Shown one piece after another: positions 3-1,127 of a stretch of DNA of 2,171 nucleotides. The notes beneath the pieces were generated by a model. The model did not search any database. It was not told the DNA's origin and saw only the letters and a list, made by a program, of their open reading frames with translations. Location: NCBI GenBank assembly GCA_000004985.1, contig GG739284.1. One strand, given 5' to 3'. Within the stretch, counting starts at the first letter, position 1. Every line of letters begins with the position of its first letter. Made by a program: the position numbers and the translations under genes. Source of the DNA: Naegleria gruberi. Taxonomy: Eukaryota.

Positions 3-1127
3 AAAGATAGACAACAAGTTACTGTACAATGGAAGGGAAGTGATTTTTGTGATTGTCTCAATAAGAATAATGTTAATTTGGGTGGAGGTCAGTTCGTTTC
101 AGCAAATCAGGTACTAAATTTAGCTAACAAGTGTATATCTGAAGAAACAATTAATTTTAAAGTAGATGGTGCTGTTTCCAATGATATTAAACGTTGGATC
201 GATGAAGCAATTAGTTCTGTCTTGAAAGATATTAATATCAACAGAGAAGATACTACACTGATTAATCAAGCAGAGAAAGCTTTGGCTAAAGGTTTAGGTT
301 TAGATCTAAAAGATTACCAGCCAATTACCTCCATGTTCGAGCTGTATGATAGCTTGTGTCATCTAACTAGCTTTGAAACCGCCAATCATGAAATTCGTGA
401 ATGGTGGAAGAGGAATAGGGAAAGTCATGGCGCTTCTGTCTCAGTTTCCGCTCCATTAATTGGTGATCTATTTTCAGGTTCTGTTAATGCAAACTATGAC
501 CAAATCAACGAAATGATCAATAAGGGAGTGTTTTCTAATCAAGCAAGTTTTATGAACCATTTGGAAAAGTTGAAAACAAGCAAAGGTCTACAACCTGTAT
601 TTACTTCTCGTTCCCTTAATCTTGTTGAGGGTGGGTCATTATCAAAAGAACTCAAAAAGATTATTAAGGTAATTGGAGTTGAGTTGATTTTGAAAACAAC
701 AAGTAAGAAGAAATCAATGATTTTAGCCAAAGAAGATGACCGGAAGAAAACTGTGGACAGATTCAAAAGTTTAACCGATCAAGTAACAAGCTTATCTAAT
801 ACGATTACAAGCCTTAGCTCAACAATTGAAAAGATTATCTCACACATGAAATATCCACAATATGAATTAATAACAACTCCCAAACCAGACAACATAGGTG
901 ATTGGTATGTAAGCTGTCCTTCAGGATACAGAGTTAACTTTTGCGGTGTCATGATGCCTCATGGCACAGGTCAAAATTTTTACTATGGAATAACCACAGA
1001 TAGTGTTTCATGTTTGTGTTCTGTAGGTAAGAAAGACAACAAGATACCATACGAACCAGGTCAGATTCCAATATGTAAAGCTCATTGCATTAGGACTATT
1101 TATAGTGATTTAACAATTAATATCTAA
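3..1127 (+). CDS. Protein-coding gene, 3' part (5' end outside the window). Hypothetical protein with an alternating-polarity segment, a coiled coil and a C-terminal six-Cys module.
   Basis: The frame at positions 3,6,9... is open from the first base to TAA at 1125..1127, about 375 codons with no stop in AT-rich DNA where stops are frequent. The translation upstream of the track's TTG start is K-D-R-Q-Q-V-T-V-Q-W-K-G-S-D-F-C-D-C-L-N-K-N-N-V-N-L and continues smoothly, so the TTG at 78 is not the true start. Amino-acid composition is sensible and codon use is biased (GGT, GAA, TTA/TTG, AAT, CAA). AATAAA sits 2 nt after the stop. The product call is inference only. Confidence 0.8.
   Translation, partial: KDRQQVTVQWKGSDFCDCLNKNNVNLGGGQFVSANQVLNLANKCISEETINFKVDGAVSNDIKRWIDEAISSVLKDININREDTTLINQAEKALAKGLGLDLKDYQPITSMFELYDSLCHLTSFETANHEIREWWKRNRESHGASVSVSAPLIGDLFSGSVNANYDQINEMINKGVFSNQASFMNHLEKLKTSKGLQPVFTSRSLNLVEGGSLSKELKKIIKVIGVELILKTTSKKKSMILAKEDDRKKTVDRFKSLTDQVTSLSNTITSLSSTIEKIISHMKYPQYELITTPKPDNIGDWYVSCPSGYRVNFCGVMMPHGTGQNFYYGITTDSVSCLCSVGKKDNKIPYEPGQIPICKAHCIRTIYSDLTINI
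786..827 (+). repeat. In-frame tandem duplication of a 21-bp / 7-aa unit (TSLSNTI / TSLSSTI) within the predicted coiled coil
   Basis: Codons 786-806 ACA AGC TTA TCT AAT ACG ATT and 807-827 ACA AGC CTT AGC TCA ACA ATT encode TSLSNTI and TSLSSTI. The protein sequence is nearly identical while the codons differ, which fits an old duplication or selection on heptad periodicity. Confidence 0.5.

Follow-up and report, generated by a model that had tools for sequence, protein, structure and literature searches.

A truncated Naegleria gruberi gene belonging to a rare, undescribed protein family with interchangeable C-terminal heads

The contig and its genes

The window, by which we mean the whole stretch of DNA analysed, is an entire 2,171-bp contig of Naegleria gruberi. 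It carries a protein gene that runs off the contig start and, downstream, a 5S rRNA gene. On the + strand, the frame 3..1127 is open over 374 codons and is closed by TAA at 1125-1127. With the base composition of the non-coding part of the contig, a stop is expected about every 13 codons. The chance of 375 open codons, computed from the contig base composition, is ~4e-14, so the ORF is coding, as the initial annotation had held. Over 342 residues, the translation of the ORF matches a GenBank entry, 'predicted protein, partial [Naegleria gruberi]' (P0001), at 100% identity. The CDS is partial, its 5' end being cut by the contig start, which falls inside the conserved module described below. The 5' truncation seen in the initial annotation is thus real, and the window carries the C-terminal ~63% of a Naegleria gruberi nuclear gene. 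A search of metagenome contigs for close relatives carrying the missing 5' part found none.

The GC content of the contig is ~33%. The 5S rRNA gene is complete (1867-1985, +; Rfam RF00001, 105 bits, E 1.5e-23), and T-runs resembling a Pol III terminator lie directly 3' of it (1985-2003). It is 71% identical to human 5S rRNA vs 59% to that of E. coli. A eukaryote-type 5S gene with T-runs, together with the 33% GC, argues against bacterial contamination and in favour of eukaryotic nuclear DNA. The 5S gene lies ~740 nt downstream of the protein gene, with no large rRNA alongside. Between the two genes, in window positions 1128-1866, both strands hold short ORFs only (<=76 aa), with no significant family match, and this part is probably an intergenic spacer. 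Its best match, Hen1_N at 1495-1725 on the - strand, is sub-threshold (E 0.0026, 17.9 bits vs a cutoff of 27). A scan of the window for sigma-70 promoters and terminators was uninformative, the host being a eukaryote.

The 3' end of the protein gene can be modelled in two ways. Mapped back to the sequence, the C-terminus of P0001 shows that the deposited GenBank model removes an intron of 121 nt at 1027..1147 (+), of the form GTAAGA...CTAAC...CAG. The spliced protein ends in ...CLCSV-DLFNQSCNVELLGMMQR and has five Cys in its head. If the frame is instead read through from 1027, 33 further codons are open up to the TAA at 1125-1127 (p ~0.07). An AATAAA follows at 1130-1135. Codon usage in the read-through stretch scores +0.23 bit/codon, vs 0.37±0.10 for the ORF and -0.34±0.27 for non-coding windows, and the other two frames of the stretch score negative. 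The read-through version also yields an even number of Cys, six. Judged by these measures, the read-through frame appears at least as plausible as the GenBank intron, and the annotated 3' end of P0001 may be wrong. Upstream of this point the gene is free of introns, because nt 3-1026 are colinear with the bacterial homologues. The initial annotation called the gene intron-free; this holds for nt 3-1026 and conflicts with the GenBank model for 1027..1147.

A rare family with a conserved module

Word-indexed homologue searches gave almost nothing, and the informative run was an exhaustive phmmer search (HMMER). Among 1.84 billion representatives it found 40 remote relatives besides the GenBank entry (E 1.7e-15 to 7e-4, 20-28% identity), most of them ~600 aa long. 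The best three matches (E 1.7e-15, 8.2e-15, and 9.3e-13) cover window residues ~1-235, which align to residues ~220-450 of the relatives. With 41 clusters in all of the library searched, the family is rare. The value of 6.6e-72 that the family profile gives for the window ORF is circular, the window sequence being inside the profile, and is excluded as evidence. By phmmer and the family profile, residues 1-243 (3..731, +) cover positions 207-451 of the 452 in a conserved module, its second half, and the alignment to the family is colinear and gap-poor. Since the window starts at profile position 207, ~200 N-terminal residues of the module, and with them any signal peptide, are outside the contig. 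Mapped on the predicted (AF2) secondary structure of a bacterial relative, P0042, residues 1-243 comprise a helical domain, an amphipathic segment, and a terminal long beta-strand, IIKVIGVELILKTTSKKKSMILA.

The alignment brings out three family motifs, all on the + strand. GGGQFVSANQ (81..110) is the motif GGxxFVxAxQ, in which G28 is invariant. LAKGLGLDLKDYQPITSMF (282..338) is the motif LxxGxGLxxxxFxPITxMW, with P107 invariant and G97 nearly so; the Trp of PITxMW is gone from the Naegleria protein. A separate AN pair of the family, placed between this motif and the next, is retained. GLQPVFTSRSLNLVE (585..629) is the motif GxEPRIxxRGLxLxE, with G195 and R203 conserved and the near-invariant Gly204 replaced by Ser (G204S). 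The near-invariant columns of the family contain only G, P, D, A, N, F, and R, and no catalytic set of His, Cys, Ser, or Glu. The similarity to the conserved module, significant and colinear, shows on alignment grounds that the Naegleria gene belongs to a rare, undescribed protein family.

The module has no match in Pfam, NCBIfam, PHROGs, PADLOC, or PDB. With the window protein as query, no Pfam match came below E=0.01 or close to a gathering score, PDB sequences gave no match, and NCBIfam, PHROGs, and PADLOC gave 0 matches. The family profile had 0 matches to PDB sequences, and trimmed modules scanned singly in Pfam at E<=10 showed no recurring family. A search for literature on this family found nothing. 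The initial annotation had described the protein as unclassifiable, and against curated families it is. The NVNLGGGQF that it singled out is present at nt 69-95, and its three-part layout is roughly right with the boundaries re-drawn to residues 1-243, 247-283, and 284-374.

Its proposal that these parts come from the C-terminal half of a protein of the MACPF/perforin type, ending in a Cys-rich module like LCCL, did not survive. The Leu-Gly-Gly taken as a MACPF hallmark belongs to the family's own invariant GGxxFVxAxQ, the residues preceding the GG in the window being CLNKNNVNL. At E<=10, the MACPF profile (PF01823) matched neither the window protein nor any of 27 trimmed modules; it was also absent from 10 full-length relatives and, at E<=1e-3, from all 40 members. 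A regular expression for the GTH-type MACPF signature, [YWF]G[TS]H[FYWL], matched 0/54 family sequences, including full-length ones that span the part missing from the window. The MACPF/CDC fold, a bent central sheet with two helical clusters, was not found, nor did the profile search against PDB sequences return a match. For LCCL (PF03815), the profile matched residues 284-374 of neither gene model at E<=10, and the faint likeness noted initially is dropped. What favours a MACPF/LCCL protein is the general layout only and, as a curiosity, the homologue of Tieghemostelium lacteum, which adjoins two MACPF genes; the family HMM finds no likeness in those genes. As far as HMM, signature, fold, and PDB-profile searches allow, both assignments are rejected, and we give them next to no credence.

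Architecture and predicted structure

Members of the family share one layout, a module of ~450 residues leading into a helical neck and then into an interchangeable C-terminal head. The module starts with GSxE...FESVxN and has an N-terminal part that is an Ig-like beta-sandwich, followed by a helical part that contains the amphipathic hairpin conserved in the family. In most bacterial members of full length, the N-terminus looks like a signal peptide; none is obvious in the T. lacteum protein or in several of the bacterial ones. C-terminal to the module, the sequences diverge completely. The heads recognised among the 40 members are Collar (nine), FGE-sulfatase (two), and CTHRC1_C, Alanine_zipper, H_lectin, and Gp10_C (one each). 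Matches to PHROGs are to tail-fibre families only, and all fall within the heads. T4 gp12, gp10, CTHRC1, Lpp-type alanine zippers, and H-type lectin heads oligomerise in known contexts.

An AF2 model of the full-length bacterial protein P0042, built on a 42-sequence alignment, has a mean pLDDT of 74; residues 10-200 score >90, and the stretch that corresponds to the window is only moderately confident at 56-88. AF2 run on the window protein as a single sequence reaches a pLDDT of 36, too low to be of use. Foldseek comparison of the P0042 model with PDB returned nothing at E<=1e-3, and fold comparison of its helical part also returned nothing. Among the best 60 chains of the fold comparison, there was no MACPF, CDC, gasdermin, aerolysin, or ClyA-type chain. 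A BFVD fold search found Collar proteins only.

The amphipathic segment, HGASVSVSAPLIGDLFSGSVNANYD (426..500, +), is beta-hairpin-like. In the family consensus, hydrophobic and polar residues take turns on both sides of a [YFW]-G-P-[FIV] tip. Among the 21 members whose segment has the common 44-residue form, successive columns before the tip show a hydrophobic occupancy of 0.90, 0.05, 0.95, 0.05, 0.95, and 0.05, and in the same statistics the alternation picks up again past it. The length of the segment differs among members, and the longer insertions are equally alternating. The P0042 model is least confident at the equivalent region (low pLDDT). In single sequences, a beta-moment shuffle test was not above chance (z=0.2 for Naegleria); that test is superseded by the column-wise conservation. 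By the latter measure, the alternating segment is real and conserved, and the hairpin-like segment recognised in the initial annotation is kept across the family.

The neck of the Naegleria protein is a predicted coiled coil of ~5 heptads in residues 247-283 (741..851, +), found by a heptad test and aligned to the neck helix of P0042 (H430-447). Its a and d positions are R247, V250, F253, L256, V260, L263, I267, L270, I274, I277, and M281. Their enrichment is high (z=4.7), a score that 0/1000 shuffles reach, and the periodicity spans at least four heptads. Of the heptad region of ~70 aa proposed initially, these 37 residues stand. Residues 214-246 give no heptad signal (z=-1.1) and align instead to the last helix and long beta-strand of the module.

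The head follows at residues 284-374 (852..1124, +). It is lineage-specific, with no homologue detected. On read-through it has six Cys (C305, C314, C337, C339, C358, and C362), and the initial count of six C-terminal Cys agrees with those between residues 305 and 362 of this frame. Neither the read-through nor the spliced form of residues 284-374 matched any Pfam family (hmmscan, E<=10), and no relative was detected in PDB or among other family members. A resistin-like head, to which CPxG[YF]xVxxC had been a lead, is rejected, with no Pfam match and no BLASTP alignment to resistin. The C-terminal IRTIYSDLTINI, called a hydrophobic tail at first, is only mildly hydrophobic (mean Kyte-Doolittle ~0.6) and has a beta-strand-like alternation; by its hydropathy, it is not a membrane anchor. 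At the level of sequence, the Naegleria head is shown to be a private disulfide-type knob of ~90 residues.

Carriers of the family and its transfer

The taxonomic spread of the family is patchy. Named bacterial carriers are Beggiatoa sp. PS (where the protein is labelled 'secreted protein'), Ca. Halobeggiatoa, a Synergistales bacterium, and a Ca. Gracilibacteria MAG. In Dyadobacter fanqingshengii, the member is labelled 'phage tail protein', a name that stems from its head domain. Among GTDB representative genomes, a strict, narrow motif pattern gave one match, a count to be read as a lower bound. It lies in the Ca. Gracilibacteria MAG (OY760177.1; L008, 4001-5197), a bacterium of the candidate phyla radiation. 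The eukaryotic carrier besides Naegleria is the dictyostelid T. lacteum (KYR00897.1), where the gene is on a 1.2-Mb contig.

Gene neighbourhoods are not conserved among the loci and give no functional clue; conserved neighbours or an immunity-like downstream gene were sought at family loci, and none was found. Bacterial members are flanked by toxin-antitoxin pairs (RES/Xre, RelE/HTH_3, and PIN) and a resolvase (L005, 6423-7322 and 15469-16206; L006, 7357-7966 and 10541-10951). Such neighbours suggest that bacterial members sit in mobile or variable genomic islands. One metagenomic member adjoins an ECF sigma factor and a Ser/Thr-kinase-WD40 gene. The T. lacteum member (L007, 6001-7920) is directly downstream of two large MACPF-domain genes (1-414, -, and 708-5480, +). 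The family HMM has no similarity to either, and the arrangement may be a coincidence or a grouping of genes for lysis or defence.

In a rough neighbour-joining tree, Naegleria forms a long branch apart from T. lacteum, and T. lacteum nests among bacterial members with Collar and FGE-sulfatase heads. Since the two amoebal proteins do not group in this tree, it suggests that Naegleria and T. lacteum acquired the gene separately. Horizontal transfer from bacteria is the probable route by which the gene reached the Naegleria lineage, followed by a replacement of the head.

The long branch, the G204S change, and the loss of the Trp of PITxMW raise the question of whether the Naegleria copy might be degenerating. 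In the extreme case, a bacterial gene acquired by horizontal transfer would be decaying or have lost its function, or the sequence would be a fragment of the assembly with no complete gene behind it. The two substitutions at near-invariant positions and the long branch fit such a remnant, as do the truncation of the gene on a contig of 2.2 kb and the lack of a close relative in any Naegleria-like data. On the other hand, 374 codons are open in AT-rich DNA (p ~4e-14), most family motifs are kept, and the neck and the even-Cys head are new and well formed, which suggests selection. We consider a remnant very unlikely.

Function

The architecture and distribution of the family fit a ligand-targeted, non-enzymatic surface or secreted protein. 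The broader idea of the initial annotation, a possibly pore-forming or adhesive protein, may still hold. The reading that we favour, and hold to be moderately probable, is that of a fibre-like protein that forms oligomers, is probably secreted, and binds a ligand; its module would have no enzymatic role and might interact with membranes. Five features point to an oligomeric, secreted or surface-exposed, and ligand-targeted protein: the lack of a catalytic set, the fibre and lectin heads, the mostly Sec-exported bacterial proteins, the loci in variable regions, and the lack of a conserved partner gene. In such a protein, the neck would provide oligomerisation, and the variable head would bind a target ligand, for example a cell-surface glycan, and so set the specificity. 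The module would act without enzymatic activity, either as an anchor or as a membrane-interacting effector working through the hydrophobic aromatic-Gly-Pro tip of the hairpin.

Some of these features can be turned around. The module could be an enzyme or an intracellular protein with a fold absent from databases, and the heads would then recruit substrate and not target cells. FGE-sulfatase-type heads are enzymes in other contexts, and several members are without a signal peptide. However, conserved residues of a catalytic type are missing, most bacterial members do have signal peptides, and the heads are mainly fibre-tip or lectin domains; an enzyme or intracellular protein is accordingly given a very low probability, the same as a remnant.

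The hairpin brings in a different alternative, a beta-barrel pore-forming toxin of a new type. Here, the head would target the cell and the hairpin of each protomer would join a transmembrane barrel, as in alpha-haemolysin or aerolysin. The hairpin is strictly alternating, Ser/Gly-rich, aromatic at its tip, and variable in length, and AF2 predicts weak helices with low pLDDT there, as in the refolding segments of known pore formers. The lack of a catalytic signature, the secretion of proteins with lectin-like heads, and a spread like that of conflict genes (patchy, beside toxin-antitoxin genes, and with swapping of heads) are also in keeping with a toxin. However, the common form of the hairpin has only ~9+7 residues, which is marginal for a bilayer, the single-sequence pattern is not above composition shuffles, and a hairpin packed on the protein core would look identical. 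Moreover, fibre-type heads suggest trimers and hence a six-stranded barrel, which is too small. Given the short hairpin, the trimers implied by the heads, and the lack of fold support, a true beta-barrel pore former is a weaker rival to the ligand-targeted protein, and an unlikely one.

The ligand-targeted reading can be pressed further. The module might be a new non-enzymatic membrane-inserting effector, with a single hairpin tipped by aromatic-Gly-Pro and swappable heads of the phage-fibre type, that has passed between bacteria and amoebae of two unrelated lineages. In Naegleria, a free-living amoeba, the protein with its disulfide head of eukaryotic style would then serve in cytolysis or prey binding, as a factor gained by horizontal transfer. 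This more specific proposal is speculative, and we regard it as quite unlikely.

If the favoured reading of a ligand-targeted, fibre-like protein is true, the Naegleria gene belongs to a protein family that Pfam, NCBIfam, PHROGs, PADLOC, and PDB do not contain, and the phage-fibre plan of a constant body with an exchangeable head is also used in Sec-secreted bacterial proteins. The family would apparently have been captured at least two times by bacterivorous amoebae. In microbial conflict, it would be a candidate targeting or lytic module of a new kind, and it would provide a clean example of head replacement following inter-domain transfer. The analysis also removes an attractive but mistaken assignment to MACPF/LCCL and casts doubt on one intron of the deposited gene model.

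Comparison with known systems

The closest parallel in layout is with phage tail-fibre and receptor-binding proteins and with the 'microcystin-dependent protein' of the MdpB type (PF07484 Collar; T4 gp12, gp37, and gp10). Like the present family, they join an N-terminal part that is conserved to a helical neck and a C-terminal binding head that can be swapped. A true Collar domain is found in 9/40 relatives, and the models of these match the tips of T4 gp12 and gp37. However, the window protein has no Collar domain (PF07484), and the conserved N-terminal module of the family matches no PHROG family. In addition, most bacterial members have Sec-type signal peptides, which are absent from virion proteins, and there are no phage genes near the family loci.

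Two groups of pore-forming proteins also invite comparison. MACPF/perforin-like proteins (PF01823) are similar in size class, in possible secretion, and in having an alternating-polarity segment, but differ in HMM, signature, and fold; they have two TMH clusters, whereas there is one amphipathic segment here. Pore formers such as alpha-haemolysin and aerolysin, fused to lectin domains, are similar in having a single amphipathic, Ser/Gly-rich hairpin per chain and accessory domains of the carbohydrate-binding type. However, there is no significant structural or sequence similarity to these toxins and the hairpin of the family is short. They are also all-beta proteins, while the module is predicted to be largely helical.

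The C-terminus of the Naegleria protein resembles CTHRC1 (PF25815), which likewise has a heptad neck and a small Cys-containing head. The bacterial relative P0036 carries a genuine CTHRC1_C head, whereas the Naegleria head, which matches neither CTHRC1_C nor another Pfam family, shares with CTHRC1 the arrangement of neck and knob.
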